From positions 1 to 64,000 of IMG/VR virus record IMGVR_UViG_3300021087_000857: DNA of 64,000 nt; one strand, written 5' to 3'. Position 1 is the stretch's first letter, and each line of letters starts with the position of its first letter. The notes beneath the pieces are model-generated. The model was not told where the DNA came from. It saw only the letters and a program-made list of their open reading frames with translations, and did not search any database. Below are positions 26,829 to 64,000 of this stretch, piece by piece. Source of the stretch: a virus. Both the position numbers and the translations under genes were made by a program.

Positions 26829-26829
26829 T

Positions 26830-35545: not shown

Positions 35546-36178
35546 ATGTTATTAACTAACCCACTAGAAATAGAACTCACAACAAAATGCACACTTGGGT
35601 GTCCTGCTTGTCCGCGAAACAATCCCAAAGAGAAAAAAGAAAATTGGGATGTAGGACACATGAATACAGATATTGCTAAAAGTTTAGCAAACTCTACAGT
35701 AGAACGTTCGTATCTTTTTGTAGGATGTTATGGTGATCCAATATATCACCCAGACTTTATAGATATAGTAAAGTATTATATAGATAGAAATAAAAGTCTT
35801 ACAATTCATACCAATGGGAGTTTTAAAAAACAATCATGGTGGGATAAACTAGCAAGTCTTAATTGGACATATAAGCAAAACTTTACTTTTAGTGTTGATG
35901 GATTAAAAGATACAAATCACATATATAGGATTCGTGCAGATTGGGAATCTATTATGCGAGGAATGAAAACAATAGGATCGTTACCATCAGATCGTAAGCC
36001 TCGTTTAGAATGGAAAATGTTAGTTTTTCCATATAACAAACATCAAGTACCAGAAGCAAGAAAACTAGCACAAGAAATAGGTATTGATACGTTTACACCA
36101 GTTAAAAGTGAAAGAGATATCAATCAATACAGAGTAGAAAACAATGAAATATATAGGTGGCCAGATGATAAAGCCTAG
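35546..36178 (+). CDS. radical SAM core domain (SPASM encoded separately)
   Basis: CTLGCPAC, GCYGDP, HTNGS, FSVDGL. Confidence 0.9.
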   Translation: MLLTNPLEIELTTKCTLGCPACPRNNPKEKKENWDVGHMNTDIAKSLANSTVERSYLFVGCYGDPIYHPDFIDIVKYYIDRNKSLTIHTNGSFKKQSWWDKLASLNWTYKQNFTFSVDGLKDTNHIYRIRADWESIMRGMKTIGSLPSDRKPRLEWKMLVFPYNKHQVPEARKLAQEIGIDTFTPVKSERDINQYRVENNEIYRWPDDKA

Positions 36179-36527
36179 ATGTTTATTATATAATATGCCA
36201 ATATTTTTATCTGCTGATAATAGATTAAAGCCGTGTTGTTTTTTAAATCCAGTTGAGCAATGGAACGATTTTATTAATTGGGGCAAACAAAACGGATTAA
36301 ATGTGGAAGAAGACTTAGACATAACAAAACATGACGTAGAAACAATACTAAAAAGCCCAACATGGTTAGCAGTACTAGATGGATTTAAAACAGGTAATGC
36401 TCCACATGAATGTCATGTATCATGTGGTCCTGATAGTTACTCAAGTACATCACAAACAGCTAAACATAGTGATTATGAAGAAAATCCTGATAGTAGTGGA
36501 TTATCTTCGGCTTATAGAGAGGAATAA
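36165..36527 (+). CDS. stand-alone SPASM/twitch domain
   Basis: AGGTGG SD, ATG 36165; KPRC...KPCC...ECHVSCG. Confidence 0.75.
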   Translation: MIKPRCLLYNMPIFLSADNRLKPCCFLNPVEQWNDFINWGKQNGLNVEEDLDITKHDVETILKSPTWLAVLDGFKTGNAPHECHVSCGPDSYSSTSQTAKHSDYEENPDSSGLSSAYREE

Positions 36528-36967: not shown

Positions 36968-37756
36968 ATGAACATAACAATATTTGGTTGCGGTTTCGTT
37001 GGAGGAACCGTAGCAAATTACTTAGAAGAAAAATACGAAGGTGAACGTTACAACATAGTAAAAGTTGATCCGTTGCATTATCCAGATGTCGATCCACAAC
37101 AAGCGGCAATGGAAGCAGATGCAATTATTATATGTGTACCCACTCCAAGTGAATACTTTGGAGAATGTGATGATAGTATAGTTAGACAAGTATTAGAACT
37201 ATGCGATGAACGTACTCCTATATTACTTAAAAGTTCAGTAACACCAGATTTAATTAAAAAGTATCCACCAAATGTAATATACAATCCAGAGTTTTTAAGA
37301 GAAGCACATGCAGAAAGCGACTTTAAAAACCAACATACATTTGTATTAGGACACCACGAGAACAACAAAGAACAAGCAAAAAACTGGGCAGACTTATTTT
37401 GTATACCAGAATGGAATGTAGTTTATACAGACCCATGTACTGCAAGTATGATAAAATACACGCATAACGCCTGGCTAGCCACTAAAGTAGCATGGTTTCA
37501 TGAGCTATATAGTGAATTACCACCAGGTATTGACTATGATACTATAACTAGTGCCTTAGGTAGGTTTCCTACTATTGGTTCGACACATATGCAAGTGCCA
37601 AATGCAGATGGAACCCTAGGATATAGTGGTGCTTGTTTCCCAAAAGACGTAAAAGCCTTGACAAAAGTAGTAAAACATAGTATACTTAACACAGTTAAAG
37701 AAACAAATGATAAACTTAATAACACAAAAGGAGATCAAGATGAAGATGAAGATTAA
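36968..37756 (+). CDS. UDP-glucose/GDP-mannose dehydrogenase (lacks C-terminal domain)
   Basis: GCGFVG, ICVPTP, LKSSV, YNPEFLRE, GYSGACFPKD. Confidence 0.85.
   Translation: MNITIFGCGFVGGTVANYLEEKYEGERYNIVKVDPLHYPDVDPQQAAMEADAIIICVPTPSEYFGECDDSIVRQVLELCDERTPILLKSSVTPDLIKKYPPNVIYNPEFLREAHAESDFKNQHTFVLGHHENNKEQAKNWADLFCIPEWNVVYTDPCTASMIKYTHNAWLATKVAWFHELYSELPPGIDYDTITSALGRFPTIGSTHMQVPNADGTLGYSGACFPKDVKALTKVVKHSILNTVKETNDKLNNTKGDQDEDED
37658..37686 (+). promoter_or_regulatory. intragenic sigma70-type promoter
   Basis: TTGACA-17 nt-TATACT, upstream of the glycine-zipper/queD/queE/metK block. Confidence 0.7.
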
Positions 37757-38231
37757 AGATATATTAACAGTAGCAATTGCAGGATTTATATTCATGGCAG
37801 TAACAGGTATTGCAAAAGCTGATAGTTATACTGAAGTTGACGGCTATTTAACACATCATTACAAAACAGTAGAAGTACAAACTAAAGTTTCTAACAGAAC
37901 ATGTTCTGAAGTAGATGTTCCAATTTATCAAAACAAAGATGCAAAAACTGGTGAAGTACTAGGTGGTGCTATTATTGGTGGTATCATTGGTAATCAAATT
38001 GGTAAAGGCAAAGGTAACGATGCCGCTACAATCTTAGGTGCAATACTAGGTGCAGATATAGCCAATAAAAAAAGCAGTAACAAAACTATTGTTGGATACA
38101 AAAGATCAACTGTATGTAAAGATAGTCCAACTTATGTAACTGAAACAAAAAACATTTATAGTCACAGTACAATTAGATTTGCAGACGGTAATAGACAATA
38201 CGATATCAAATTTATTGACGAAGACAAGTAA
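37740..38231 (+). CDS. glycine-zipper 2TM exported protein (YcfJ-like)
   Basis: Signal peptide; GGAIIGGIIGNQIGKGKGNDAATILGAILGA. Confidence 0.85.
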   Translation: MKMKIKDILTVAIAGFIFMAVTGIAKADSYTEVDGYLTHHYKTVEVQTKVSNRTCSEVDVPIYQNKDAKTGEVLGGAIIGGIIGNQIGKGKGNDAATILGAILGADIANKKSSNKTIVGYKRSTVCKDSPTYVTETKNIYSHSTIRFADGNRQYDIKFIDEDK

Positions 38232-38238
38232 TCAAACC

Positions 38239-38278
38239 AGAGGACTTTATGCGTCGACCCTCTTTAAATACTCCGCCG
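38239..38278 (+). ncRNA. candidate preQ1-I-like riboswitch/pseudoknot upstream of queD
   Basis: AGAGG/CCTCT stem, 15-nt loop ending in C, A-rich tail, loop GCG complementary to tail CGC. Confidence 0.45.
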
Positions 38279-38300
38279 TTTAATTTTATAGGAGAATACA

Positions 38301-38747
38301 ATGGCTTATTATAGCACAAAACATTACGGACACAACATTGGACTAAGTGCAGTGTTCCGCCAACCCAATGCAGATCATTCGCATTGCCATTTGCTACACG
38401 GATATAGTTTAGCATTTACATTTACATTTGGTTGTAATGAATTAGACAACAAAAACTGGGCAGTCGACTTTGGAGGACTAAAACCTTTGAAGGCTTGGCT
38501 AGAAGATAGCTTTGATCATAAAGTAGCAGTAGACAAAGCAGATCCACATATGGATACACTAAAAGATCTTGAAGCAAAAGGCTTAGCAGAACTACGTATT
38601 TTTGATGGAGTAGGTGCAGAGAAATTTGCCGAGCATGCTTTTAATTTTGCAGACAAACTTATACGTGAAGCAACTGATAACAGATGCTATTGTGTTAAAG
38701 CCGAGTGTGCAGAGCATGGAGCCAATTCAGCAATCTACGAGGCATAA
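38301..38747 (+). CDS. queD: 6-carboxy-5,6,7,8-tetrahydropterin synthase
   Basis: HCHLLHGY, VDFGGLK, FDHK, GAEKFAE. Confidence 0.85.
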   Translation: MAYYSTKHYGHNIGLSAVFRQPNADHSHCHLLHGYSLAFTFTFGCNELDNKNWAVDFGGLKPLKAWLEDSFDHKVAVDKADPHMDTLKDLEAKGLAELRIFDGVGAEKFAEHAFNFADKLIREATDNRCYCVKAECAEHGANSAIYEA

Positions 38748-39647
38748 ATGGATAAACTTAGATATAGTGAAGCATTCTATTCAGTGCAAGGTGAAGGTAA
38801 ATTTGTAGGAGTACCTAGTGTATTCTTACGTACTTTTGGTTGTAACTTTAGATGCATGAACTTTGGGCTTGATAGGAGTGAACCTAGTAGAGCAGAAAAA
38901 CATGCACAAGGCAATCGTTATAATGATGAGGTATTAGATCTTATCAATAATGATGTACACAAAACAACTAAAGAATTTACAGACTTACCTATTATACACA
39001 CAGGGTGTGATACTTATGCAAGTATCTATCCAGAATTTAAAGAATATAATAAACAAAGAACTATAGACGAAGTAGTAGAACACTTACTAAGTCTTACTCC
39101 TGAAGGTAAATGGACTTGTGATAATGGACAAGATATTCATCTTATACTTACAGGCGGCGAACCGTTGTTAGCGTGGCAACGTTTGTACGTTGATTTATTT
39201 GAACATCCACGTATGAGGGATTTACAAAATGTTACAGTTGAAACAAACACTACGCAACACTTACACAAAGATTTATTCAAATATCTCGACAACAATGACA
39301 GAATTACAGTTACATGGAGTTGTTCGCCAAAGCTCTCCGTTAGTGGAGAATCTTGGGACGATGCTATTAAGCCTAGTGTGGCTAGGGAGTATAGTACTGT
39401 TGATGGTAGCGATATCTATCTTAAATTTGTTGTTGCTGACAGGACTGATATTGACGAGGCTGGTAGAGCTGTTGATGAATATCGTAAAGCGGGTTTGGAC
39501 TGCCCTGTGTACCTTATGCCGTTGGGCGGCAGGTCAGAAGAGTATAATCTCAATGTTCAAGAAGTTGCGAACATCTGTATGGAAAAGGGTTGGAGATTCA
39601 CCCCAAGACTCCACATCAGCCTATTCGGAAACGCATGGGGAACCTAA
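38748..39647 (+). CDS. queE: 7-carboxy-7-deazaguanine synthase (radical SAM) with an insertion in the Cys motif
   Basis: SEAFYSVQGEG, VFLRTFGCNFRC...GCDT, LTGGEP, VETN, SPKL, RLHI. Confidence 0.9.
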   Translation: MDKLRYSEAFYSVQGEGKFVGVPSVFLRTFGCNFRCMNFGLDRSEPSRAEKHAQGNRYNDEVLDLINNDVHKTTKEFTDLPIIHTGCDTYASIYPEFKEYNKQRTIDEVVEHLLSLTPEGKWTCDNGQDIHLILTGGEPLLAWQRLYVDLFEHPRMRDLQNVTVETNTTQHLHKDLFKYLDNNDRITVTWSCSPKLSVSGESWDDAIKPSVAREYSTVDGSDIYLKFVVADRTDIDEAGRAVDEYRKAGLDCPVYLMPLGGRSEEYNLNVQEVANICMEKGWRFTPRLHISLFGNAWGT

Positions 39648-39693
39648 AGACGGTCTAGAAGATCGTATAAGAAAAGCAGGATACTAAAAAATT

Positions 39694-40791
39694 ATGAAGC
39701 AAGGCAATTATATTTTTACAAGCGAAAGTGTAAGTAAAGGACACCCAGATAAGGTGTCAGATCAAATTAGTGATGCACTAGTTGATGCAGGATTAAAAAA
39801 CGGCGACGAGACAACTCGTGTAGCAGTTGAAACACTTGTAACCACTAACCATGTAACGTTAGCGGGTGAGGTAAAGAACTTTAATGTAAGCAAGGACGAA
39901 GTCAAACAAATCGTTCGTGACAAAGTTAAAGAGATTGGATACGAACAGGATGGATTCCATTGGGATAAGTTAAACATCTATAACGAGATTCATTCGCAAT
40001 CAGGTGATATTGGGTTGGGAACAGATAGTTTTGGTGCAGGTGATCAAGGTATTATGTTTGGTTACGCATGTACAGATAACGATGCAATGCTACCAGCACC
40101 TATTCATTACTCGCATGAAATTTTAAAGTCGTTAGACAAAGCAAGAGAAAGTGGATACGAATTTCTACTACCAGATGCTAAGTCACAAGTAAGTGTTCAG
40201 TACGAAGGTGGAAAGCCAACACGTATTGATCAAATTGTTGTATCACATCAACACAAAGACGGATTTCAACATAGCATTAAGGCACCTATAAAAGATGCCG
40301 CTAACGAAGTATTAGGAGATTTAATTGATAAAGAAACTGTATGGCATATTAATCCTACTGGTAATTTTGTTATTGGTGGACCCGATGGAGACACAGGTCT
40401 CACAGGCAGAAAGATCATTGTTGATACTTATGGTGGTTTTGCTCCCCATGGCGGCGGCGCATTTAGTGGCAAGGATCCTACCAAAGTAGATCGCAGTGCG
40501 GCTTATATGGCACGATGGTTAGCAAAGAATGTTGTAGCAGATAACATGGCTGACTGGTGTAGTATTCAACTTAGTTATGCTATTGGTGTTAAAGAACCTA
40601 CTAGTATCTATATAGATTCAAATGGACACAATAGAAGTATTCAGCAATTTATCCAAAACAACATTGACTTAACACCAAAAGGAATCATTGACAAGTTTGG
40701 GTTATTCAAGTATAATAAGTATAGTGAAAATTGTGTTTACGGACACTTTGGCGACAAAGATGTACCGTGGGAAAGTATAGGATGGAAATGA
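39694..40791 (+). CDS. metK: S-adenosylmethionine synthetase
   Basis: FTSESVSKGHPDK, GAGDQG, GLTGRKIIVDTYGG, GGGAFSGKDPTKVDRS. Confidence 0.97.
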   Translation: MKQGNYIFTSESVSKGHPDKVSDQISDALVDAGLKNGDETTRVAVETLVTTNHVTLAGEVKNFNVSKDEVKQIVRDKVKEIGYEQDGFHWDKLNIYNEIHSQSGDIGLGTDSFGAGDQGIMFGYACTDNDAMLPAPIHYSHEILKSLDKARESGYEFLLPDAKSQVSVQYEGGKPTRIDQIVVSHQHKDGFQHSIKAPIKDAANEVLGDLIDKETVWHINPTGNFVIGGPDGDTGLTGRKIIVDTYGGFAPHGGGAFSGKDPTKVDRSAAYMARWLAKNVVADNMADWCSIQLSYAIGVKEPTSIYIDSNGHNRSIQQFIQNNIDLTPKGIIDKFGLFKYNKYSENCVYGHFGDKDVPWESIGWK

Positions 40792-50167: not shown

Positions 50168-50231
50168 AGTAATATAAGTTATGCCAAAGAAGAAACAAAT
50201 TTTATCACCATTAGAAGAAGGAAGTGAAAAT

Positions 50232-51356
50232 ATGAAAACTGCGATAAGTGAATCAAGAACTGTAAAAATTAGTGAGGCAACTACCCTCATTACACGAGCT
50301 TTTAAAAAGAAGCGTCCTGTATTTTTATGGGGTCCTCCAGGAATTGGTAAATCAGAACTAGTTAAAGAAATTGGCGACTCGGGTGCATTAGGTAAAACTC
50401 ATGTAATTGATATGCGTCTTGCATTGTTTGAGCCTACTGATTTGCGAGGCTATCCTGTACCAAATGTTGAAACAGGTGTTATGCAATGGTTACCACCTGC
50501 AGATTTGCCAAGTAAAGAATTGGCTAAGAAGTATGATACAGTTATTGTATTCTTAGATGAAATGAACTCAGCGGCACCTAGTGTGCAGGCGGCGGGTTAC
50601 CAGTTAATCCTTAACAGACGTATTGGACAATACGAACTGCCAGACAATGTTGTAATGATTGCTGCAGGTAATAGGGAAACTGACAAAGGTGTTACTTACA
50701 GAATGCCTAAGCCACTTGAAAATCGTTTTGTTCACTTTGAACTTAGAGTTGATTTCCAAGATTGGTTGAACTGGGCAGTAATGCACGAAGTTAATCCTGA
50801 TGTAGTTGGTTACTTGTCATTTGCAAAAGGCGACTTATATAACTTTGATCCTCAATCAAGTTCAAGAGGATTTGCTACGCCAAGAGCTTGGACATTTACT
50901 TCAGAACTACTTGAAGGTGAAGACGACTTGTCAGATAGTTTACAAACTGATATGGTAGCAGGTTGTGTTGGCGAAGGTATTGCAGTTAAGTTTATGGCAC
51001 ATAGAAAGATTGCAGGAGACCTTCCTGTTCCAGAAGATGTGCTAGATGCTAAAGTTAAAAAGATTGATACTACTGAAGTATCGGCAATGTATGCATTGGC
51101 TACATCACTATGTTATGAACTACGTGATAGATTTATTACTGGTGAAAAAGCAGGTGCTGATAGCAAGCAGATGGAAAAGTACCACAAGAGCTTTTCAAAC
51201 TTTATCAGCTTTATGATGGATAACATGGAAACTGAAATGGTTGTTATGGCATCAAGAATTGCAATGCAACAATACAAGTTGGTTCCTAAGCAAAAGAAAA
51301 TTGAACGTTTTGAAGAATACTTTAACCGTTATGGACGTTTGGTACTTGACGCTTAA
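50232..51356 (+). CDS. MoxR-type AAA+ ATPase
   Basis: GPPGIGKS, FLDEMN, AAGNR, LENRF, ATPRAW; SD-supported ATG 50232 (track start 50181). Confidence 0.9.
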   Translation: MKTAISESRTVKISEATTLITRAFKKKRPVFLWGPPGIGKSELVKEIGDSGALGKTHVIDMRLALFEPTDLRGYPVPNVETGVMQWLPPADLPSKELAKKYDTVIVFLDEMNSAAPSVQAAGYQLILNRRIGQYELPDNVVMIAAGNRETDKGVTYRMPKPLENRFVHFELRVDFQDWLNWAVMHEVNPDVVGYLSFAKGDLYNFDPQSSSRGFATPRAWTFTSELLEGEDDLSDSLQTDMVAGCVGEGIAVKFMAHRKIAGDLPVPEDVLDAKVKKIDTTEVSAMYALATSLCYELRDRFITGEKAGADSKQMEKYHKSFSNFISFMMDNMETEMVVMASRIAMQQYKLVPKQKKIERFEEYFNRYGRLVLDA

Positions 51357-51376
51357 TTTAACAGTAGGAAAATAAA

Positions 51377-52549
51377 ATGAACAAAACAGCAGAAGAAAGA
51401 ATTACCCAGTCCAGAGTTAGGTTGCTATTAACTAAACCTTTCTTTGGGCAACTAGCGGTAAGATTAAAAATTGAAGATGCAAGTTCATATTTGCCTACTG
51501 CGGCAACAGATGGTAGAAGGTTTATGTTCAATAGAGAGTTTGTTGATTCTCTAAATGATGAGATGCTTGACTTTTTAGTAGGACATGAAGTATTGCATTG
51601 TGTGTTTGATCACATGCAGGCACGTGGTGATCGTAAGCCTCAACTATTTAATGCGGCGGCTGACTATAACATTAACATGACGCTTGTAGAACAAAACATA
51701 GGTAAGCCAATTACTGAAGATAAACTAGAAGGCGGCAAGATTTGTTTGGACTGGAAATATCAAGGTTGGAACAGTTATGAGATATATGATGACTTGCTAA
51801 AGACTCAGCAAGATGCTAAAGGCATGGATGTGCATATGGACGAAATACAACCCGGTGACGAAGATGGCGAAGGTGGTCAAGGTGTTGAAATGTCTGAAGA
51901 AGAAAAGAAAGCATTAGCAGACGAAATTAAGCAGGCTACTATCCAAGCGGCACAGGCGGCAGGTGAAGGTGTACCAGATGTAATTAAACGTATGATCAGT
52001 GAATTAGTTGCACCTAAAATGGATTGGAGAGACATACTAAGAACTCAATTAGAAAGTTCACTTAAAAATGATTTTACTTTTATGCGTCCTAGTAAAAGAA
52101 GTGGTGAAGTTATTTTTCCAGGTATGAACAAAGACGAAGAACTTAATATTGCAATTGGACTTGATACTTCAGGTAGTATTAGTCAAGATATGTTACGTGA
52201 TTTCCTTAGTGAAGTACAAGGCATTATGGATCAATATCAAAGTTACAATGTACATATCTTTCAATTTGATACAGATGTGTATGGTGCAGATGACTTTACT
52301 AGTGATGATGGTCGTACAATGGATGAATACCAACTTAAAGGTGGAGGTGGTACAGACTTTGATGTAGTGTTTAATTACTTAGAACAGTATAACATTGAAC
52401 CCGATCAACTTGTTATGTTCACAGACGGCTATCCTTGGGGTAGTTGGGGTAATGCAGATTACTGTGATACACTTTTTGTTATTCACGGTGATAAGCAAAA
52501 AAGAATTCAATCACCATTTGGAGTTACAGTACATTATGAAGCAGCTTAA
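51377..52549 (+). CDS. DUF2201-type metallopeptidase plus VWA domain
   Basis: TAATDG, HEVLH, DTSGSI (MIDAS), GGGGTDF, FTDGY. Confidence 0.9.
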   Translation: MNKTAEERITQSRVRLLLTKPFFGQLAVRLKIEDASSYLPTAATDGRRFMFNREFVDSLNDEMLDFLVGHEVLHCVFDHMQARGDRKPQLFNAAADYNINMTLVEQNIGKPITEDKLEGGKICLDWKYQGWNSYEIYDDLLKTQQDAKGMDVHMDEIQPGDEDGEGGQGVEMSEEEKKALADEIKQATIQAAQAAGEGVPDVIKRMISELVAPKMDWRDILRTQLESSLKNDFTFMRPSKRSGEVIFPGMNKDEELNIAIGLDTSGSISQDMLRDFLSEVQGIMDQYQSYNVHIFQFDTDVYGADDFTSDDGRTMDEYQLKGGGGTDFDVVFNYLEQYNIEPDQLVMFTDGYPWGSWGNADYCDTLFVIHGDKQKRIQSPFGVTVHYEAA

Positions 52550-53687: not shown

Positions 53688-54028
53688 CAGCACCGTTATA
53701 TAAACTAGGACTAACACCTAAACTAGTAGACGAAGATACAATAGATATTAGCGAGTTTGATCCTAGGCAAAGAACAAATATTAGGTTATATGGATTGGAA
53801 TGTAAAGATTGGACTCCATTAATGATTAGTGATTATAAAAGAAAATGGGCATCGACTAGTACACCAGTAGTAGTGTTTGACTATGATGGTGCTCTAAAGT
53901 GGTGCAAAAAACATTTATATCATCATACTTTTAATGTTATAAAGTGGTCAAATCCAGACGATAGCCATACAGTACATTTTGAAAAAGAAGAAGATGCAAT
54001 GCTATTTAAATTAGCGTTTAGTGGTTGA
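53684..54028 (+). CDS. hypothetical protein (F..E.DAMLFKL family)
   Basis: HFEKEEDAMLFKL; ATGA coupling. Confidence 0.7.
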   Translation: MTAPLYKLGLTPKLVDEDTIDISEFDPRQRTNIRLYGLECKDWTPLMISDYKRKWASTSTPVVVFDYDGALKWCKKHLYHHTFNVIKWSNPDDSHTVHFEKEEDAMLFKLAFSG

Positions 54029-54053
54029 CATAACCACTTTACTATCATATAAT
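54025..54053 (+). promoter_or_regulatory. sigma70-type promoter
   Basis: TTGACA-17 nt-TATAAT, perfect consensus. Confidence 0.85.
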
Positions 54054-55369: not shown

Positions 55370-55666
55370 ATGCCAATAGAACGAAAAGACAGGTCTTTCG
55401 ATCTGATCTTTGACCAAGTATCTATGGATCATGTTCCAGCTGAATATATCAAGGAAGTTAGAGTAGATCTAGGTACAGGTGAAAGAATAACACTAACAAA
55501 AGAAGATTTGCAGATGATTAAAAACAAGTCTGCAGATGAAATTATTAAAGCATTAACAGTAGACTCAATGTCTAATATCAGTTTAAAGTTAGATTACACT
55601 GCTATTAAATCAGATGTTATGCGAGGTGTCTCGGGCTTTTTAGGAAAACACTTTGACGACAAGTAA
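55370..55666 (+). CDS. hypothetical protein
   Basis: AAGGG SD. Confidence 0.7.
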   Translation: MPIERKDRSFDLIFDQVSMDHVPAEYIKEVRVDLGTGERITLTKEDLQMIKNKSADEIIKALTVDSMSNISLKLDYTAIKSDVMRGVSGFLGKHFDDK

Positions 55667-56357
55667 CATATGGTTTTGTGGAATACCAGGAAGTAGGTGG
55701 AGCGGTATCGATATACAGATGCGTTCCATTTTACCCTGTGATCGCACAGACGAAACTCCAGAAAGAACACAATATCACAGAGCGTTTGATCCAAACGATG
55801 CTAATAATGGTCATCGTGGTAGCTATTGGGGTCCTGGCATGGGATGTGGTAAAGACTGGGTAGACTTTAATTTTTTAACAAAAAACAAATTGCAAGATGA
55901 TATTAATAATGTATTCTCTGGTACAGGATATAGAATAATTAAGAGTCATTTTTTTGCAAGAAAATTTAACTTAGACTTTATATGGAATAACTTTCCAGGT
56001 GATCGTATAGTGCTAATATATAGAGAGCCTCAAAAAAGTTTTGCGTGGTGGAGTGAAGTAATGGATATGGCACCAGAACATTATCCAGACTATAGACCAG
56101 GATATACTGACTATAACACCATGCGTGAATTACTATGGAAAGAGTCTGCAATTATAACAGACTTTGCCATACGTAAAGGATTAACATTCAAACCTTACAG
56201 TACACATGAATTTTCCTCTTGGAAAGGTTTTGACCATGCTAGTGCATTTCAAATAGACTTTGAAAAGATAAATAATACTAAGCACAAAGATGTTTTTATA
56301 ACATCGTGTCAAATACCAAATCAAAGGAATAATGTTCATGACTTTCCAAAATCTTAA
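55653..56357 (+). CDS. P-loop/sulfotransferase-like protein
   Basis: WFCGIPGSRWSG, IIKSH, VLIYREP...SFAWW follow the sulfotransferase motif order. Confidence 0.45.
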   Translation: MTTSNIWFCGIPGSRWSGIDIQMRSILPCDRTDETPERTQYHRAFDPNDANNGHRGSYWGPGMGCGKDWVDFNFLTKNKLQDDINNVFSGTGYRIIKSHFFARKFNLDFIWNNFPGDRIVLIYREPQKSFAWWSEVMDMAPEHYPDYRPGYTDYNTMRELLWKESAIITDFAIRKGLTFKPYSTHEFSSWKGFDHASAFQIDFEKINNTKHKDVFITSCQIPNQRNNVHDFPKS

Positions 56358-56432
56358 GAACATACAGTATATTGATAAAATTAATACTGAACGTTATCTT
56401 GCGATTGGACAAAATAAAATATAGAGAATAAT

Positions 56433-57860
56433 ATGTCAGATAGTAAATTACCAAGCGATACTTTTTGTATACTTCCGTGGATACATTTAAGTACTAGACC
56501 AGATGGAAGTATGAGAGTATGTTGTACTGCTAACGCATCAAGTGTAGGAGCAACAAATGATAAAGCACACGGTGGAAGAGTAGGTATTGTTAAAACAGAA
56601 GATGGCAAGCCTGCTAACCTAAACAACAGTGATCTTAACAGTAGTTGGAATAACAGCTATATGCGAAGTGTTAGACAAATGATGCTTAAAGGCGATAAGC
56701 CAGCAAGTTGTTTAAAATGCTACAAAGAAGAAGATGCAGGACACAGATCAAAGCGTCAATGGGAAACAGACTATTGGATGCGTGATGGTATTGATGTTGA
56801 CGAACTAGTAGCTCAAACATACGAAGATGGATCAACAGATAGTAAACTACGTTATATTGATATTCGTATGGGAACTAAATGTCAATTAGGTTGTGTTATG
56901 TGTAGCCCACATGATAGTTCAGGTTGGGTGAAAGACTGGAACAAGTTATATCCAAATATTACAAATGAATCTCTAAAAGAAACTATGAATTGGGATTCTA
57001 AAGGTAAAACGTTTGGTGCTAGTTATAATTGGCACAAAGACAATCCAGTATTTTGGGATCAGTTTTATGCACAAATTCCATACATTAGACAGTTATACTT
57101 TGCAGGCGGCGAAAGTACAGTTATTGAAGAACATTATAGTATTTTATCTAAAGTTATTGAAATGGGGTATGCACATCAAATTGAAGTACGTTATAATTCA
57201 AACGGAATTGAACTACCAGATAGACTATTAGAACTATGGACACATTTCCAAAAAGTACGTTTCCATTATAGTATTGACAGTATTGGTGTAATGAATGATT
57301 ATATTCGTTACCCAAGTGAATGGGACCATCAACTTAAAATGTTTGAACGTTTAGATAAAGAAACATCTAACAATGTAGAAGTTACAATTGCATGTGCCGT
57401 TAACGCTCTTAACATTCATTATATTCCAGACTTCCTTAAATGGAAACTTCAGGATAGCGGACTAAAGAAAACAAATATGTGGCCATTTGGTGCAGGCGGT
57501 ATTAACTATCACTTTGTATACTGGCCAGGACATTTGAATGTTAAAGTACTACCAGATGAATTCTTAGATAAGACTGAAGCTAAGTATGAAGAATTTATTG
57601 AATGGTGGAAAGAAAATTGGGAACTAGGTGTTCCAAGTTGGCATAAAGGTAAAGTAACCAAAGAACAATGGCTAGATGCGAGTTATGGAATTAAACGTTT
57701 ACGTGGTATGATTAGTTTTGCTCGCAGTGAAGATTGGAGTAGACGCTTACCAGAATTTAGAGAATATATTAATAAACTAGATGAGTTACGTGGAACTGAT
57801 TTCCGCAATACATTTCCAGAAATGGCATACTTACTAGATGAACCGGAGAATGATAAATGA
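56433..57860 (+). CDS. radical SAM protein with N-terminal twitch domain
   Basis: CILPW...VCC...CLKCY; CQLGCVMC; FAGGE; YNSNG. Confidence 0.92.
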   Translation: MSDSKLPSDTFCILPWIHLSTRPDGSMRVCCTANASSVGATNDKAHGGRVGIVKTEDGKPANLNNSDLNSSWNNSYMRSVRQMMLKGDKPASCLKCYKEEDAGHRSKRQWETDYWMRDGIDVDELVAQTYEDGSTDSKLRYIDIRMGTKCQLGCVMCSPHDSSGWVKDWNKLYPNITNESLKETMNWDSKGKTFGASYNWHKDNPVFWDQFYAQIPYIRQLYFAGGESTVIEEHYSILSKVIEMGYAHQIEVRYNSNGIELPDRLLELWTHFQKVRFHYSIDSIGVMNDYIRYPSEWDHQLKMFERLDKETSNNVEVTIACAVNALNIHYIPDFLKWKLQDSGLKKTNMWPFGAGGINYHFVYWPGHLNVKVLPDEFLDKTEAKYEEFIEWWKENWELGVPSWHKGKVTKEQWLDASYGIKRLRGMISFARSEDWSRRLPEFREYINKLDELRGTDFRNTFPEMAYLLDEPENDK

Positions 57861-58432
57861 AATATTTATTAGTCGCACTTGAAAATGAAGTGCCAAATAT
57901 CGATTTACCCGATGATTATACACTAATGATTACAGGTGTAGGTAAAGTAAATGCTACTGTAATGGCTACTATTGCCGCTAGACAACCAGACTGTGAATGT
58001 ATTATTAACTACGGAACAGCAGGAACTTTTAATCCTAAACTAGTTGGTAAACTACACAGAATTGGAATAGTAAAACAACGCGATATGGATGCAAGACCAC
58101 AAGCACCATTAGGAACTACTCCATACGAAGATACAAAATTCAGCAGTGATTTGCAACTTTATAAAGGAAGTAAATTTACATTAAGCACAGGCGATAACTT
58201 TGTAAAAGCCAACCCCGAAATGCAAAGTGACTTTGTAGACATGGAAGGGTATGCTATTGCAAAAGTGGCAGGTATGTTTAATAAGCCATGTATGATGTTA
58301 AAATATGCAAGCGACTTAGCTGACGATAAAGCACCAGAAGAATGGGAAAAGAATCAAGCCAAAGGCAAAGATATGTTCCTAAAATGGCTAGATGATTTAG
58401 AAAAGAATATCCAAGAAATAAACGATGAGTAA
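57857..58432 (+). CDS. mtnN: 5'-methylthioadenosine/SAH/5'-deoxyadenosine nucleosidase
   Basis: ALENE, TGVGKVNA, INYGTAG, STGDNF, VDMEGYAIAKV, KYASDLAD. Confidence 0.85.
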   Translation: MKYLLVALENEVPNIDLPDDYTLMITGVGKVNATVMATIAARQPDCECIINYGTAGTFNPKLVGKLHRIGIVKQRDMDARPQAPLGTTPYEDTKFSSDLQLYKGSKFTLSTGDNFVKANPEMQSDFVDMEGYAIAKVAGMFNKPCMMLKYASDLADDKAPEEWEKNQAKGKDMFLKWLDDLEKNIQEINDE

Positions 58433-59684
58433 TTCGGGCTTTTGTGCATTACCATTTGTTCAATATAGTACTTACAACGGAGGACGTTTTAGACTTTGTT
58501 GTATGGCTAAAGAACCTAAAGAACTAGTCAATCAAGAAGAACTAGGAATTGATGGCACTTGGAATCACAATTATATAAAAGACGTAAGACGCAGAATGAC
58601 TGCTGGTGAGAAATTATCAGAGTGTATTGAATGTCATCATTTAGAACGTAACGGAATAATGAGCTCACGCCAATGGGAAAATAAAGTGTGGGCAGACGTA
58701 ATAGATGATGTAGTAGCAGACGCATCAGCTAATGATTGGGAGATTGACCAGCCTCTACAATTTGATTTTAGACTTGGTAACTTATGTAATTTGCAGTGTC
58801 AAATGTGCAACAAAGAAGCATCTCACTTAGTGAGTGTGGAAAGAGCCACAATGGTACAAAGCGGACTCGGAGCGAACCATCCTGATTGGGACGGCAATAT
58901 TGCAAACAAAAAACAAGCATTACTTCAACCTGGAATAGAGTGGGAGAGCTTTGAAAGAATGTTACCATATGCTCGCAAAATAAAACTAATAGGTGGCGAG
59001 CCTACAGTTGCTCAAGACATGTTTAAATTGTTAGACATTGCAACTGCAAGTGGTCATGCAGAACATATAGAATTAAGTTTTTATACAAACATCACTAACA
59101 TGCAAGATAAATGGTTAGACCAACTATCTAAGTTTGAGAAAGTGATTGTTAACTGTTCATTGGAAGGAATGGAAGATATGAATGATTATCTTAGGCCTCC
59201 AAGTAAGTGGGCAAGTGTATGGAAGAACTTTGATAAGTTAGTTAAGTTCTCAGATACAAAAGAAGGTAAACGTATAAAGGTACGAGTTACTACAGTAAAC
59301 CAAATAACCAATGCATTGCATACTGCTACATTTTGGAAGTTTATGCATGATTATCAGATGACTAGTAATAGAGGCATTGGTATGAGTACTAACCAATTAG
59401 TAGAGCCAGCATACTATAGTATGGCACATGCTCCTGAATGGTTGAAAGAAGAACAACGTGAACAGATTTTGGAATTTCTCAAAAGCATTGGCAACAGTCC
59501 ACATTTTGAGCAATACGAAGAACCTCTTATGGAACTTGTTAATTTTAGTTTGGATCCTGAGCATAAGTATGATGCTGACATCATGCGCCAGTATGTCAAG
59601 ATCACCGAAAACTACGACAGATTCAGAGGACACGACATTATTCAAGTGTCGCCCGAATTTAGAAGAATTAAAAGAGACCTCTGA
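58425..59684 (+). CDS. radical SAM protein with N-terminal twitch domain
   Basis: CALPF...LCC...CIECH; CNLQCQMC; IGGEP. Confidence 0.92.
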   Translation: MSNSGFCALPFVQYSTYNGGRFRLCCMAKEPKELVNQEELGIDGTWNHNYIKDVRRRMTAGEKLSECIECHHLERNGIMSSRQWENKVWADVIDDVVADASANDWEIDQPLQFDFRLGNLCNLQCQMCNKEASHLVSVERATMVQSGLGANHPDWDGNIANKKQALLQPGIEWESFERMLPYARKIKLIGGEPTVAQDMFKLLDIATASGHAEHIELSFYTNITNMQDKWLDQLSKFEKVIVNCSLEGMEDMNDYLRPPSKWASVWKNFDKLVKFSDTKEGKRIKVRVTTVNQITNALHTATFWKFMHDYQMTSNRGIGMSTNQLVEPAYYSMAHAPEWLKEEQREQILEFLKSIGNSPHFEQYEEPLMELVNFSLDPEHKYDADIMRQYVKITENYDRFRGHDIIQVSPEFRRIKRDL

Positions 59685-59738
59685 TTTAACTAAAGCAGAA
59701 ACCTATCATCGATGGGATTGTAAAGTAACTGTAGACTT

Positions 59739-60569
59739 TTAAAACTTTTTAATACGTTCTGCCATACATAGCTCAGGCTTGAGCAAACTTTCATTTAATA
59801 TATCAGCTTCAAAGCATTGTAACTTTGTGCCAAATACAATTTGGTGAGTAATCCATTGTGCATTAAAGAACCAAATATCACCTGGATCAAAAGTAATATA
59901 ATGTAATGGGTGGTGAAACTGATCCCATTTTTCTTCATTCCATACACATCTATCACGCATTCCAGTAATAAATGTATGTATGTTGTTTTTATCTAGTTCA
60001 CCTAAGTTAAACTTATCTTTGTACATGTTATACATTTGTTGTAAGTCTGGACCACACGATAATACTCTAGGACGCTTTTTATCTAATTGAACAAACATAC
60101 GTATCTGTTGTTCTAGTCCAGTGTGTTGTTCATCTAGTTCGTCCAAGTGTAGTTTATTTTCTACTAGTGTATTATATCTATGACTAAGCATACGTTCACT
60201 TGTTTTGTAATGTGGGAATAACATATCAAATACTTCGTTCCATCCATTGTTAGCTTGTTTGTGTTTTTGATGAAATACATTAATTTGCTCGTCATTCCAA
60301 CCACGTTCTATATGCATACGTGATCTATTTTTAATATGACTGTTATACCAAGGCATAATCCATTTGTTATCTTTAATAGTCCAGTCTGGTAAGTCGTCAT
60401 AGTAATCATAATCTAATTGTGGTATAGTTAGATTTTTAATAACCACCGGCCAGCCACTTTCAAATGCTTCGTATAGTTTAAAATTGTCTTTTAGGTCGTG
60501 TTTATTAGCGTCGAAAACATTGACAATGAAGTCGTTTCCTGCTATAATATCTTTAGCGATACGGGTCAT
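59739..60569 (-). CDS. Kdo-hydroxylase (KdoO)-like 2OG-Fe(II) oxygenase
   Basis: LHLD (HxD), IRMFVQL..RPRV, FDPGDIWFF...THQIVFG; GGAG SD before ATG 60569; only convincing minus-strand gene. Confidence 0.6.
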   Translation of the reverse strand: MTRIAKDIIAGNDFIVNVFDANKHDLKDNFKLYEAFESGWPVVIKNLTIPQLDYDYYDDLPDWTIKDNKWIMPWYNSHIKNRSRMHIERGWNDEQINVFHQKHKQANNGWNEVFDMLFPHYKTSERMLSHRYNTLVENKLHLDELDEQHTGLEQQIRMFVQLDKKRPRVLSCGPDLQQMYNMYKDKFNLGELDKNNIHTFITGMRDRCVWNEEKWDQFHHPLHYITFDPGDIWFFNAQWITHQIVFGTKLQCFEADILNESLLKPELCMAERIKKF

Positions 60570-60598
60570 GTTGTATAAAACTCCATTTGTGTGTATAG

Positions 60599-60619
60599 AT
60601 AAATACATATATATTTATG
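60599..60619. promoter_or_regulatory. inverted pair of late-promoter-like ATAAATA boxes between divergent genes
   Basis: ATAAATA-catatata-TTTAT (ATAAATA also reads on the minus strand). Confidence 0.5.
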
Positions 60620-60674
60620 CAAGTAAAAATCCAAGTTCAACGCATATTGAACAAACATCATATGAGAATAAAAA

Positions 60675-61760
60675 ATGACAAAATCAGTTAATGTATGGAG
60701 CGAATTTCAGCCCCTAAAAAGAGTAGTGCTAGGAGCACCGTTTCCACCTGAAACATTTGATTGGCACGAGGACGAAGAAACACGCAATGTAATGCGTCAA
60801 ATCTTTAAAGAAACAGCCGAGGACATAGCAGTGCTGGAGGGAATATTAAAGGACAGAGGTATTGAAGTAGTACGTCCTAAAAATATATTTACAATCACAG
60901 GTGAAGAACAAATTAAATTACCATGGATGCATTGTGGGTTTCCTAACCACCCATTAATGCCACGTGATACACTTATGCCGTATGGCAATAGTATATTTGA
61001 ATGTTTTACAGGTAGCGATAATCGTTACTTTGAGAATCTCGCATATTACGATCATTGTAGTAAATGGTTTAGTGAAGGTGCAGATTGGGTTAGTATGCCA
61101 GGAGTATTAGTAGAAAGTGGTAAAAAATATGACCACTTTGTAGATAATCATCGACTGCTTTATCATGCGGCTAACATGATAAAGTGTGGACGCCACGTTT
61201 TGTTTAGCCAACCCTATGAGGGAGACAATAAACGAGGCAGAGGTACGGAGCTGGGCCGTGAATGGATTCGTAGAGAAATAAAACTACGTTATCCAGATAC
61301 AAAGTTTTTGGACATTCCAGTAGGAGGACATATCGATGGTAAAATAGCATTGCTAAAACCTGGTGTGCTAATGACCTGGAATGCAAATTGGGTTCCTAAA
61401 GAAATGGAAGGTTGGCACATTATTGAAGTAGATGATGATTTTGACATGCCAGAAGATTTCCAACAAACTCGTAAGAAAAGATTCCACAAAGAATATGTAA
61501 GCAAGTGGTTAGAGCATTGGGTAGGTTGTCCAGACGAAAGTGTGTTTGATGTTAACGTACTATCACTAGATGAAAAGACGGTAATTTGTACAGGTAAAAA
61601 TGAACAAGCATTTGCTGAAATGGAAGCACATGGCATTGAACCAATATACTGGAACTTTAGACATCAGTATTTTTGGGATGGTGGCATACATTGTTTAACA
61701 AGTGATATTGTTAGAGAAGGTGGGCAGGAAGATTATATAACTAACAAAAGGTACTATTAA
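60675..61760 (+). CDS. amidinotransferase (glycine/inosamine-phosphate amidinotransferase family)
   Basis: WSEFQPLKRVVLG, MPRD, GHIDG, FDVNVLSLD, GGIHCLTSD. Confidence 0.9.
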   Translation: MTKSVNVWSEFQPLKRVVLGAPFPPETFDWHEDEETRNVMRQIFKETAEDIAVLEGILKDRGIEVVRPKNIFTITGEEQIKLPWMHCGFPNHPLMPRDTLMPYGNSIFECFTGSDNRYFENLAYYDHCSKWFSEGADWVSMPGVLVESGKKYDHFVDNHRLLYHAANMIKCGRHVLFSQPYEGDNKRGRGTELGREWIRREIKLRYPDTKFLDIPVGGHIDGKIALLKPGVLMTWNANWVPKEMEGWHIIEVDDDFDMPEDFQQTRKKRFHKEYVSKWLEHWVGCPDESVFDVNVLSLDEKTVICTGKNEQAFAEMEAHGIEPIYWNFRHQYFWDGGIHCLTSDIVREGGQEDYITNKRYY

Positions 61761-62809
61761 TGAGTTGGTACAAGAACCTACATAAATTACAACTTGACCC
61801 AACAAGTCATTGTAATGCAAGATGCGGTGCTTGTGCTAGAAATATATACGGTGGTGAAACTAGACACGACTTGGAATTAAAACATTTTGACTTAGAGTTA
61901 TGGAAAAGAATAGCAATCGAAGACACTAAAGAGTGCTACATAAATCATTTAAGTCTAAATGGAAATTGGGGCGATGCTTTAATGCACCCAGATATAATAG
62001 AAATAATTGAAATTTGGAATACATATCATCCAGAAAGTGAAATGGCAATAGCAACAAATGGAAGCCTACGTAGTACAGAGTTTTGGAAAAAGTTAGCCAA
62101 CGTACTAAGAAACACTCCTCGACATAGTCTTGAATTTTCAATGGATGGAATGGAAGATACACATCACATTTATAGAAGAAAAACATCACATTCAAAGTTA
62201 GTAGATAATATTAAAACTTTTGTAGATGCAGGTGGAACTGCAAACATATATATGACTTTATTCGAACACAACAAACACCAAATTAAAGAAGTAGCAAACT
62301 TATCTAAAGAATTAGGTGCTGATGGATTTTATATAAGGCATAGTCATCGTAGTAAGATGAAAATTATAGACGGTGAAGAACGATACGATATAGAAGGTTA
62401 TTTTCCAAAAATAATAAAAGGCTCTTTTACTTTTCCAAAAAATAAAAAAATAAATAGTGATGCAAGAGATAGTAAAATACACATACAAAATAATGAAAAA
62501 ATTAAACCAAATACAACAAGTAAATGTCCTTGGAAACAACAACACAAAGTACAAATTGATCCATGGGGAATAATATGGCCTTGTTGTTATGTAAGTAAGT
62601 ATGGTGGTGGTGGGTCAATGACAGGTTTTAATATGGACGAAATTTTTTCACCAGGCAATGATAATATTATTAATAATGTATTTGAACAAAATGATGTAAA
62701 CAAGTATACCTTAAAAGAAATATTAGAAAATAAATGGTTTAATACAACAGTAGATAATGCAATAGCAAAGTCTGAATGGAATATTTGCAATGAAACTTGC
62801 GGAATATAA
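61760..62809 (+). CDS. radical SAM protein with C-terminal SPASM/twitch domain
   Basis: CNARCGAC, NGNWGD, ATNGS; KCPW...WPCC...CNETCG. Confidence 0.92.
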   Translation: MSWYKNLHKLQLDPTSHCNARCGACARNIYGGETRHDLELKHFDLELWKRIAIEDTKECYINHLSLNGNWGDALMHPDIIEIIEIWNTYHPESEMAIATNGSLRSTEFWKKLANVLRNTPRHSLEFSMDGMEDTHHIYRRKTSHSKLVDNIKTFVDAGGTANIYMTLFEHNKHQIKEVANLSKELGADGFYIRHSHRSKMKIIDGEERYDIEGYFPKIIKGSFTFPKNKKINSDARDSKIHIQNNEKIKPNTTSKCPWKQQHKVQIDPWGIIWPCCYVSKYGGGGSMTGFNMDEIFSPGNDNIINNVFEQNDVNKYTLKEILENKWFNTTVDNAIAKSEWNICNETCGI

Positions 62810-62818
62810 GGAATAACA

Positions 62819-63919
62819 ATGAATTGGTATAGACAGATACATAAATTACAAATAGATATAACAAGTCATTGTAATGCTAGATGTGGTGCTTGTATAAGAA
62901 ATATAAATGGAGGTGCAACTCATCCAGGTTTAAAACTAACCCATTTTGATGTAGATGTTTGGAAACGTATGGCTACCGAAGACACTAGAGGTTGGTGGGT
63001 TAGGCAGCTAACACTAAATGGAAATTGGGGCGATCCAATGATGCATCCTCATTTAGTAGAAATGTTAGAAATATGGATTACTGCTCACCCGGAAACTTTT
63101 ATATCTATTGCAACAAATGGAAGTATGCGTAGCACTAAGTTTTGGTCAGACCTTGCTACAATATTACGTAAAGGATCTCATCACAAAGTTGATTTTGCAG
63201 TAGATGGAATGGAAGACACGCATCATATATACAGACGAAAAACTGTGTTTTCTAAACTAAAAGAAAACATAAAAGCATTTACAGATGCAAAAGGACAAGC
63301 AATTGCAGTAATGACAATGTTTGAACATAACAAACATCAAATAGAAGAAGTAAAAGAATTGGCAAGAGAAGTAGGTTGCAAACACTTTATTGCAAGAAGA
63401 AGTCATAGTGATCATATGCTTATCGAAGACGGTGACGAACAATACGAAATAAAAGGTTGGTATCCAACTGGAAATGGCGAGCATGTAATTGATAACGATA
63501 CTCCGGAACTTGAACAAGACTTTCCCGAAAACGAACATCCACTAAGTGTAAATAGAGACAGAATATGGATGAGAGCTAATGAACGTTTTGAAGAATTAAA
63601 TGATAATCATATACCAAGTAAATGTCCTTGGAAAGATGAAGGGGAAGTACAAATAGACCCATGGGGTGTTGTATGGCCTTGTTGTCATGTAAGTTTATAT
63701 GGCGGTGCTGGAGCATCAGAAAATATGTCTATAAAATTAAACTTTAATGAAGAAGCTGAACAAACTAATTTTATCGAAGAAGGAAAAGAATCAAACAGTT
63801 TGCATAATAGATCGTTAAAAGATATATTAAATAATCAATGGTATAATGATACACTTAATCATGCTATAAAAAATGCAGATTATGATGTGTGCAGACGTAG
63901 TTGTGGGATATGTAAATAA
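62819..63919 (+). CDS. radical SAM protein with C-terminal SPASM/twitch domain (tandem paralog)
   Basis: CNARCGAC, NGNWGDP; KCPW...WPCC...CRRSCG. Confidence 0.92.
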   Translation: MNWYRQIHKLQIDITSHCNARCGACIRNINGGATHPGLKLTHFDVDVWKRMATEDTRGWWVRQLTLNGNWGDPMMHPHLVEMLEIWITAHPETFISIATNGSMRSTKFWSDLATILRKGSHHKVDFAVDGMEDTHHIYRRKTVFSKLKENIKAFTDAKGQAIAVMTMFEHNKHQIEEVKELAREVGCKHFIARRSHSDHMLIEDGDEQYEIKGWYPTGNGEHVIDNDTPELEQDFPENEHPLSVNRDRIWMRANERFEELNDNHIPSKCPWKDEGEVQIDPWGVVWPCCHVSLYGGAGASENMSIKLNFNEEAEQTNFIEEGKESNSLHNRSLKDILNNQWYNDTLNHAIKNADYDVCRRSCGICK

Positions 63920-64000
63920 TGTACGTTAATCCAATGTTAAATGATACACGCTATCCAACGTGCTTGGCACCTTGGAATGCACTCACTATTAAATGGGGCG
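63919..64000 (+). CDS. 5' fragment of a probable further twitch-domain radical SAM protein
   Basis: TAATG coupling; MYVNPMLNDTRYPTCLAPWNALTIKWG (CxxPW start); truncated by window edge. Confidence 0.6.
   Translation, partial: MYVNPMLNDTRYPTCLAPWNALTIKWG

Follow-up and report, generated by a model that had tools for sequence, protein, structure and literature searches.

Introduction

Radical S-adenosylmethionine (SAM) enzymes perform some of biology's hardest reactions and, to our knowledge, phages rarely carry more than one of them. The present study concerns a block of radical SAM and other tailoring-type genes on the IMG/VR virus record IMGVR_UViG_3300021087_000857, a linear sequence of 110,270 bp from an uncultured marine phage. 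The stretch analysed, henceforth the window, consists of the first 64 kb of this record (positions 1 to 64,000), and the coordinates of the record continue the numbering of the window.

The closest described systems are those of the Campylobacter phages CP220 and CPt10, in which clusters of 10-12 genes each combine a putative glycine amidinotransferase gene with five radical SAM genes (Timms et al. 2010, PMC2853527). These genomes encode 11-12 radical SAM proteins each, which was termed highly unusual, and no function was assigned to them (PMC2853527). A T4-like genome of 183 kb from Tara has 12 radical SAM genes along with an A-type carrier (Nishimura 2017, PMC5332604), and radical SAM cassettes and a host recognition cluster have been described in pelagimyophages (Zaragoza-Solas 2020, PMC7029224). 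In the virion proteome of the cyanophage S-SCSM2R, an amidinotransferase and a 2-oxoglutarate (2OG) oxygenase were detected (PMC12801897). None of the papers found in literature searches on such clusters in phages or Bdellovibrio assigns a function to them. An initial annotation of the window, made from the sequence alone, had stated that no such viral pathway was known, which goes too far in view of the radical SAM blocks, all uncharacterised, of CP220/CPt10, the Tara genome and the pelagimyophages. The block described here is a bigger and differently composed variant of a phage module that has been known but unexplained since 2010.

Extent of the block and comparison with described phage modules

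The record encodes a T4-type DNA polymerase (phrog_262, E = 2.4e-146) and a clamp loader (phrog_168, 8.1e-78), and contigs of up to 322 kb carry homologues of its genes. We therefore regard the record, whose completeness was estimated by CheckV at about 32%, as a fragment of a T4-like jumbo phage. The block extends from about 56.4 kb to about 81.2 kb of the record and adjoins the replication module. The G+C content is about 35% throughout and shows no compositional break at the block. Twenty-two genes in the interval 60675-81205 overlap or have gaps of no more than 23 nt. The positions of the open reading frames (ORFs) in the initial annotation were exact, and its description of a contiguous tailoring-type gene set that continues past the window edge in a phage holds as far as about 81.2 kb, on a record with T4-type replication genes. 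Beyond the window, the block contains nine more radical SAM genes, a gene for a pyridoxal phosphate (PLP) aminotransferase-like protein, one for an Fe/2OG hydroxylase and two paralogues with a glycosyltransferase A (GT-A) fold and a methyltransferase fold. When the block was compared by megablast with 50,697 phage records, no match was found.

Fourteen radical SAM genes lie within about 24.5 kb (56.4-81 kb), ten of which score above the curated cut-off of 170 bits for NF033640 (N_Twi_rSAM, twitch domain-containing radical SAM protein). Across the 110-kb record the CxxxCxxC motif occurs in 19 ORFs, the radical SAM genes, and 13 of them are above this cut-off, while no match above it was found in any of 14 control genomes. 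The accumulation of radical SAM genes on the record is more than expected by chance. NF033640, a family without a known reaction, has undergone expansion in this phage, which alone encodes 13 diverged paralogues.

The locus resembles those of CP220 and CPt10 in that a T4-like phage carries a co-directional radical SAM block around an amidinotransferase gene, followed by transferase-fold genes; according to its annotation, the CP220 module closes with two genes of the nucleotide-diphospho-sugar-transferase fold. The CP220 amidinotransferase gp086 is homologous to the one encoded at 60675 (hhalign probability 99.7%), yet the two are only 24% identical. In gp080-gp084 of CP220, as annotated, the radical SAM domain starts at or near the gene start, which leaves no room for an N-terminal twitch domain, unlike in the NF033640 proteins here. 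When its two transferase-fold genes gp088 and gp089, and gp082, were compared by hhalign with the families of the proteins encoded at 68878 and 59739, no similarity was found (probability <1%). The present block is twice the size of that of CP220 and adds PLP-like, short-chain dehydrogenase/reductase (SDR)-like, hydroxylase and nucleosidase genes. With the other marine T4-like phages (PMC5332604, PMC7029224) the present one shares a dozen radical SAM genes, Fe-S carriers of the phage's own and cassettes that are gained or lost between close relatives. Those papers counted genes only, and the block here adjoins the replication module instead of tail fibre genes.

Radical SAM enzymes

Three NF033640 proteins with an N-terminal twitch domain are encoded on the plus strand in the window, at 56433-57860 (418 bits), 58425-59684 (293 bits, Cys motifs present) and 63919-65169 (252 bits), the last of which exits the window at 64000. 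The remaining NF033640 genes of the block start at 66060 (214 bits), 67195 (314 bits), 72309 (182 bits), 73304 (382 bits), 75073 (322 bits), 76954 (281 bits) and 78450 (297 bits). Outside the block, NF033640 genes are found at 92438-93631 on the minus strand (348 bits) and with starts at 3390 (195 bits) and 19046 (215 bits). The plus-strand gene at 62819-63919 encodes a radical SAM protein with a C-terminal SPASM domain (PF04055, 39 bits; PF13186, 21.9 bits against a cut-off of 21.5). Its neighbour at 61760-62809 (+) encodes a SPASM-type relative, 49% identical to it, which lacks the N-terminal twitch domain and matches PF04055 with the core only (43.7 bits); its best NCBIfam matches, ScmF and a tungsten-cofactor maturase, are both far below cut-off. 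Radical SAM proteins without the N-terminal twitch domain are also encoded at 76245-76961 and 79778-80947. The radical SAM calls of the initial annotation thus resolve into two NF033640 proteins, two of SPASM type and the start of a fifth, again of NF033640.

The CxxxCxxC, GGE and N-terminal Cys motifs are kept in all 13 NF033640 copies of the record. In 12 of these, C-x17-CC-x(28-61)-CxxC precedes CxxxCxxC, the copy at 63919 being without the CC pair. In the protein encoded at 56433 the cysteines are Cys12, 30/31, 93 and 96, plus CxxxCxxC at 150. An alignment (E = 5.7e-6) relates the N-terminal domain to the twitch domain of BtrN, an aminocyclitol dehydrogenase in which the auxiliary cluster serves alcohol-to-ketone oxidation and in which, different from here, the twitch domain is at the opposite end of the protein. 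The nearest solved relatives of the radical SAM core are 8vpo, SkfB as second-best, the nucleoside-sugar enzyme BlsE, MoaA and viperin. Weak secondary NCBIfam matches of the radical SAM proteins are to PapB, SkfB, YhhB and the mycofactocin maturase.

The NF033640 paralogues of the record are only about 20-31% identical among themselves. In a viral group with an amidinotransferase of no more than 46% identity, the best matches to the proteins encoded at 56433, 63919, 65162, 73304 and 79778 are 39-77% identical, and individual cluster genes match Bdellovibrionia proteins at 28-62% identity. The most conserved member of the block, that at 56433, is 66% identical in this distant viral group and 57% in a metagenome-assembled genome (MAG) of Pseudobdellovibrionaceae; with the 79778 protein it forms the best-conserved pair among the radical SAM proteins. 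The low identity between paralogues combined with the high identity of each gene across groups suggests that the paralogues have old and distinct functions.

Elsewhere on the record, at 35546-36527 (+), a radical SAM core of just 210 aa precedes a separate 127-aa ORF. Homologues of both pieces also occur as separate, adjacent genes in reverse order in a Bdellovibrionia locus (L032, 6644-7753), so that the split looks real and not like a frameshift.

Amidinotransferase and nucleosidase

The translationally coupled run 60675-81205 opens with the gene at 60675-61760 (+), and the amidinotransferase call made for it initially stood up well. Its product of 361 residues matches HsvA (8.8e-24), SxtG (2.9e-18), StrB1 (3e-17) and AGAT (1.3e-14) in the PDB, with residues 19-355 covered. 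The residues P96-R97-D98 (PRD), H219-x-D221 (GHxD) and H339-C340-x-T342 (HCxT), which we take from AGAT to be those of the catalytic triad, are invariant in nine sequences down to 25% identity, and H339-C340 aligns with the HC of HsvA. Judged by its sequence, the protein is a genuine L-arginine-type amidinotransferase with intact catalytic motifs. Its nearest solved relatives are small-molecule enzymes that act on free amines.

The gene at 57857-58432 (+), which overlaps both flanking radical SAM genes, encodes an MTA/SAH (methylthioadenosine/S-adenosylhomocysteine)-nucleosidase-like protein of the PNP_UDP_1 superfamily (PF01048, 52.6 bits against a cut-off of 25.1). It had been annotated as MtnN. 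Its nearest models are those of nucleosidases/MTAN, but it is below the equivalog cut-offs of NF004168 (97.8 against 129 bits), NF004079 (66.4 against 169) and TIGR01704 (37.9 against 73.8). Since it passes the superfamily model PF01048 only, it is better named MTAN-like. MTAN relieves product inhibition by 5'-deoxyadenosine, and the nucleosidase of the block may likewise clear this inhibitory by-product of radical SAM turnover.

Other enzymes of the block

The gene at 65162-66067 encodes a PLP fold-I aminotransferase-like protein. Its matches at an Atlas score of 0.99 are viral clusters, of whose members 17-27% carry PF00155; the direct match to PF00155 (E = 0.0017) has 18.1 bits against a cut-off of 19.7. 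A gene at 71582-72331 encodes an Fe/2OG hydroxylase of the Asp/Asn beta-hydroxylase family (PF05118, 39.8 bits against a cut-off of 22.6) with invariant H164-x-D166, H212 and R222 (HxD...H...R). The product of 74490-75080 is weakly SDR-like by a PDB match at E = 0.0066. In a Pfam scan of the unassigned ORFs at E<=10, only that at 68607-68891, which is ABM/DUF3291-like, passed its family cut-off (PF11695, 33.2 bits against 23.5).

The two adjacent genes at 68878-70164 and 70164-71585 are paralogues (hhalign probability 99.7% to each other). Profile searches of the PDB with the alignments of these two and of the 65162 protein returned nothing significant. A model of the 68878 protein was predicted from a 40-sequence alignment with a predicted local distance difference test (pLDDT) score of 88. 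In this model, residues 14-200 have a GT-A fold (Z 9.0-9.8, root-mean-square deviation 3.1-4.1, 135-162 residues aligned), with matches to a Leptospira glycosyltransferase, LARGE1, GlyE, SpsA, the PBCV-1 capsid glycosyltransferase and Mimivirus R699; nucleotidyltransferases of the same fold match this domain at Z 7.6-8.0. Residues 203-414 have a class I methyltransferase fold, with Z 12.2 to 6ulo, an uncharacterised Leptospira protein, and Z 8.7-8.9 to NNMT/PNMT. These observations on a predicted structure indicate that the 68878 and 70164 proteins likely combine a GT-A fold with a methyltransferase fold.

Two ORFs of the window have no family assignment. The first, at 55653-56357 (+), encodes 234 aa and had been called sulfotransferase-like. 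Searches of NCBIfam, PHROGs, the PDB sequences and Pfam, the last as far as E<=10, gave no match to it, and BLASTP found no similarity to the annotated sulfotransferase of cyanophage S-SCSM2R. A best-hit homologue covering at least 60% of its length is present in five of 23 related viral loci and absent, for instance, from locus L004. It is an accessory gene present in some close relatives only. The other ORF, at 59739-60608, encodes 289 aa and is the sole minus-strand gene of the block. The label KdoO-like given to it earlier finds no sequence or profile match: it has none in Pfam (E<=10), NCBIfam, PHROGs or the PDB sequences, its 10-sequence profile matches nothing in the PDB at E<=1, and a Pfam domain is present in none of 120 database homologues. 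An AlphaFold model from the 10-sequence alignment had a pLDDT of 50 and was unusable. The ORF is nonetheless conserved, as its homologue adjoins the amidinotransferase gene in 17 viral loci and Bdellovibrionia clusters hold a protein 28-32% identical to it. Its invariant H154-x-D156 and several further invariant His residues would allow a metal site without demonstrating one.

Conservation in viruses and in Bdellovibrionia

A search with the amidinotransferase recovered 23 viral loci. In the close viral group, with an amidinotransferase identity of 79-92%, the gene order is kept while single cassettes have been gained or lost. The viral group with 46% identity, whose loci are on contigs of 236-256 kb, retains the order 56433-like ... 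amidinotransferase, 63919-like, 65162-like ... 73304-like, 79778-like, and a homologue of 62819 comes after the amidinotransferase gene in most relatives. Among five related records, whose genomes are still incomplete, the number of PF04055 matches ranged from 8 to 25, being typically 17-25 and just 8 in one (G004). Relatives are abundant in marine metagenomes, where one enzyme by itself has 2,793 matching proteins at E<=1e-10.

The amidinotransferase alignment also matched nine MAG loci assigned to Bdellovibrionales, Bdellovibrionia or Pseudobdellovibrionaceae at 37-47% identity, one of them on a 917-kb contig. The neighbouring genes in these loci best-match those at 56433 (57%), 79778 (62%), 17591 (42%), 63919, 65162, 67195, 73304, 59739 and 71582. 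Bdellovibrionia thus share gene content with the phage block, not its order or strand, and the genes are spread over several loci. Bacterial genomes with the cluster have 9-25 NF033640 matches at E<=1e-10, most of them above the cut-off, and at least one match above the cut-off was found in 31 of 151 sampled genomes of the phylum Bdellovibrionota. Random gene order across relatives had been named at the outset as the finding that would tell against a common pathway. This objection falls away, since the order is kept across viral relatives and the content is kept in bacteria.

The Bdellovibrionia loci encode proteins of 680-810 aa, three of which (736-808 aa) are fusions with a PF05118 hydroxylase at the N-terminus and a complete 70164-like protein after it (L034, 13247-15469; L035, 4110-6536; L031, 13247-15457). 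A 678-aa protein of a further locus (L032, 13018-15054) matches by BLASTP the 68878/70164 part only. The fusions indicate that the adjacent phage genes 70164 and 71582 are functionally linked. The joined proteins resemble LH3/PLOD3, which is among the weak fold matches, in the fusion of an Fe/2OG dioxygenase to a protein with GT-A and Rossmann folds. They differ from it in that the hydroxylase comes first, PF05118 is not the PLOD family and the second domain is methyltransferase-like. A GT2 gene was found within about 5 kb of an NF033640 cluster in three of five Bdellovibrionota genomes. In a 2.66-Mb single contig (G034), an NDP-sugar-epimerase-like gene, whose product is 31% identical to the GalE of the phage, is about 4.5 kb away from the cluster, measured to its closest radical SAM gene.

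Two contigs in public databases look like mis-binned jumbo-phage DNA. One (PAAV01000055.1, L039), labelled as a Chloroflexota MAG, has 27% G+C and phage-like cluster content. The other is a 322-kb NCBI 'bacterium' contig that encodes homologues of the phage proteins 68878 and 59739 (P0199, P0284).

Support genes elsewhere on the record

The phage has its own SAM synthetase gene (MetK, 430 bits). Beyond the window, genes for an A-type Fe-S carrier at 90439-90822 (-; PF01521, 4e-11) and for a NifU-domain protein at 93637-93987 (-; PF01106, 2.4e-21) flank the thirteenth NF033640 gene, at 92438-93631. Sugar-nucleotide and cofactor genes are scattered over 25572-27798 and 36968-40791 (+). This set encodes a GT-B glycosyltransferase (PF00534), GalE (306 bits), a QueE-like protein (38748-39647), MetK, and a 262-aa protein that matches only part of the N-domain of UDP-glucose dehydrogenase. 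A NodU/CmcH-type carbamoyltransferase is encoded at 126-1643 (+; phrog_1601, 1.7e-94; NodU model, 1.4e-40 over the C-terminal half), on the same strand as the block and 54 kb upstream of it.

A proposed pathway and its alternatives

The initial annotation had envisaged a pathway for a heavily decorated sugar or small molecule. The enzyme mix, which comprises the amidinotransferase, PLP-like and SDR-like proteins, the Fe/2OG hydroxylase and the proteins with GT-A and methyltransferase folds, fits small-molecule or sugar chemistry, and this remains the best available reading. The decorations assigned to the product stand less well. Sulfation has no basis, since the sulfotransferase label is unsupported. 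Carbamoylation is likewise unsupported; the carbamoyltransferase gene does exist, but 54 kb away and outside the block. From the gene identities we infer the substrate and reaction steps as follows. The block, in a proposal to which we give about an even chance, is an operon-like tailoring pathway of the phage in which a sugar-type molecule is edited stepwise by radical chemistry, guanidinylated and transferred to an acceptor. The radical SAM paralogues are diverged yet individually conserved, which points to many distinct steps on many similar C-H/C-OH positions and hence to a sugar, a cyclitol or a short glycan. The substrate would be such a polyhydroxylated molecule, a sugar being free or nucleotide-activated, and would be edited at many of these positions by about ten diverged twitch radical SAM enzymes. 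The PLP aminotransferase-like enzyme may transaminate at least one keto intermediate, and the amidinotransferase could then move an amidino group from arginine onto the resulting amine. The Fe(II)/2OG hydroxylase and the two GT-A/methyltransferase-fold proteins would hydroxylate, methylate and/or transfer the product onto an acceptor. The nucleosidase would remove 5'-deoxyadenosine, and the SAM synthetase and Fe-S carriers of the phage would feed the radical SAM load.

The succession of oxidation, PLP-dependent transamination and amidino transfer is the logic of 2-deoxystreptamine and streptidine biosynthesis, and all three enzyme classes (twitch radical SAM as in BtrN, PLP aminotransferase-like and arginine amidinotransferase as StrB1) are present together here. 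The likeness has limits, in that those pathways have one radical SAM step where at least ten would occur here, and inositol-phosphate synthase, 2-deoxy-scyllo-inosose synthase or other core aminoglycoside genes were not recognised. Several further observations weigh against the proposal. No nucleotidyltransferase or sugar-activating gene was found inside the block, PF00535 and PF01041 have no match anywhere on the record, and a substrate is known for none of the enzymes encoded in the block. Most known SPASM and twitch enzymes mature peptides, and proteins are frequent substrates of the PF05118 family. The GT-A assignment of the 68878 and 70164 proteins is built on middling Z scores, and the 40-sequence alignment of 68878 has no invariant DxD, its sole conserved acidic site being W-x-[D/E]-G-x-W-P. 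The SDR-like call is weak, and the adjacency of GT2 genes in bacteria, counted by eye in five genomes, is suggestive only.

If proteins or peptides are modified instead, the target could be a ribosomal peptide, a protein of the host or a structural protein of the phage such as a fibre, and the reactions could comprise cross-linking, epimerisation, hydroxylation with subsequent glycosylation, and amidination of the lysine-to-homoarginine type. That the NCBIfam SPASM/twitch families are mostly peptide maturases agrees with this idea, as do the weak matches to PapB, SkfB, YhhB and the mycofactocin maturase, the rank of SkfB among the solved relatives of the core, the assignment of PF05118 to the Asp/Asn beta-hydroxylases, the general layout that the Bdellovibrionia fusions share with the collagen lysyl hydroxylase/glycosyltransferase LH3 (a low-rank fold match) and the presence of an amidinotransferase and a 2OG oxygenase in the S-SCSM2R virion (PMC12801897). 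We consider such modification unlikely all the same. No small ORF in the fetched viral or bacterial loci best-matches a small ORF of the block, although short or diverged precursors could escape such a comparison, and the 110-kb record has no collagen-like repeats of note. PLP aminotransferase-like, SDR-like and arginine amidinotransferase enzymes typify small-molecule pathways, and the free amines used by the nearest solved relatives of the amidinotransferase point the same way.

Radical SAM and PLP enzymes act in thymidine hypermodification in other phages, and a base such as a 7-deazaguanine derivative could conceivably be elaborated into an amino- or guanidino-decorated adduct that blocks host nucleases. 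QueE-like, GalE and GT-B genes are on the same record, CP220 has QueD about 6 kb upstream of its module, and CP220 DNA is fully substituted with 7-deazaguanine (PMC10516641). We find DNA hypermodification very unlikely, however, because the gene set also occurs over several loci of Bdellovibrionia chromosomes, no DNA-binding, glycosylase or transglycosylase gene is found inside the block, the que/dpd genes are 17-35 kb away from it, and 14 radical SAM steps far exceed the need of any known base modification. The streptidine-like logic, with its BtrN twitch and StrB1 matches, would also suit a diffusible product, either an antibiotic-like aminocyclitol or guanidino compound or an anti-defence molecule, aimed at the infected cell, at competitors or at the prey of predators; both phages and predatory bacteria attack Gram-negative cells. 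This, too, seems improbable, given that the block has no recognisable gene for transport, resistance or regulation, that GT-A-like transferases suggest attachment to an acceptor over release, and that a secreted compound would be of little profit to a strictly lytic phage with little time.

The proposed editing of a sugar-type molecule may be extended, tentatively and with considerable doubt, to a pathway shared by jumbo phages and Bdellovibrionia, in which at least ten diverged twitch radical SAM enzymes would work one after another on a single sugar-type scaffold and, together with transamination, amidination, hydroxylation and transfer, yield a new class of heavily edited guanidino-glycan for the Gram-negative envelope, serving as a coat, a shield or a weapon. 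If true, this would mean new radical SAM chemistry and a new common tool of phages and bacterial predators. The number of radical SAM genes, together with a SAM synthetase, Fe-S carriers and a nucleosidase of the phage's own, implies that the product must matter for infection. The presence of the gene set in Bdellovibrio-like predators offers a cellular system and hints at a function tied to the attack on Gram-negative cells. The identity of the product would assign a reaction to the large uncharacterised family NF033640, and the product itself could be a glycan, a metabolite or a macromolecular modification of a kind new for phages.

Promoter-like sites and neighbouring genes

A perfect sigma-70-type site (TTGACA-17-TATAAT with TG, 12/12 consensus) is present at 60520-60548 (+), about 127 nt upstream of the amidinotransferase start. 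It falls within the 5' end of the minus-strand gene 59739-60608 and faces the amidinotransferase gene. We note it as a candidate promoter of the 20.5-kb operon, as a lead only, since promoter-like sites in the region are in total not above chance; a second perfect 12/12 site (TTGACA-17-TATAAT) is found at 54025-54053 (+). The T4-type late promoter TATAAATA does not precede any gene of the block, and its five copies in the 110 kb are all elsewhere.

Just upstream of the block, at 50181-52549 (+), a MoxR-type AAA ATPase gene is followed by one for a DUF2201 metallopeptidase/VWA protein (PF13203, 6.7e-37; PF09967, 1.7e-19), and the two form a conserved pair. The record also encodes, at 6444-7886 (+), a full-length TctA-family subunit of a tripartite tricarboxylate transporter (PF01970, 5.6e-97), which is an unusual auxiliary gene for a phage.

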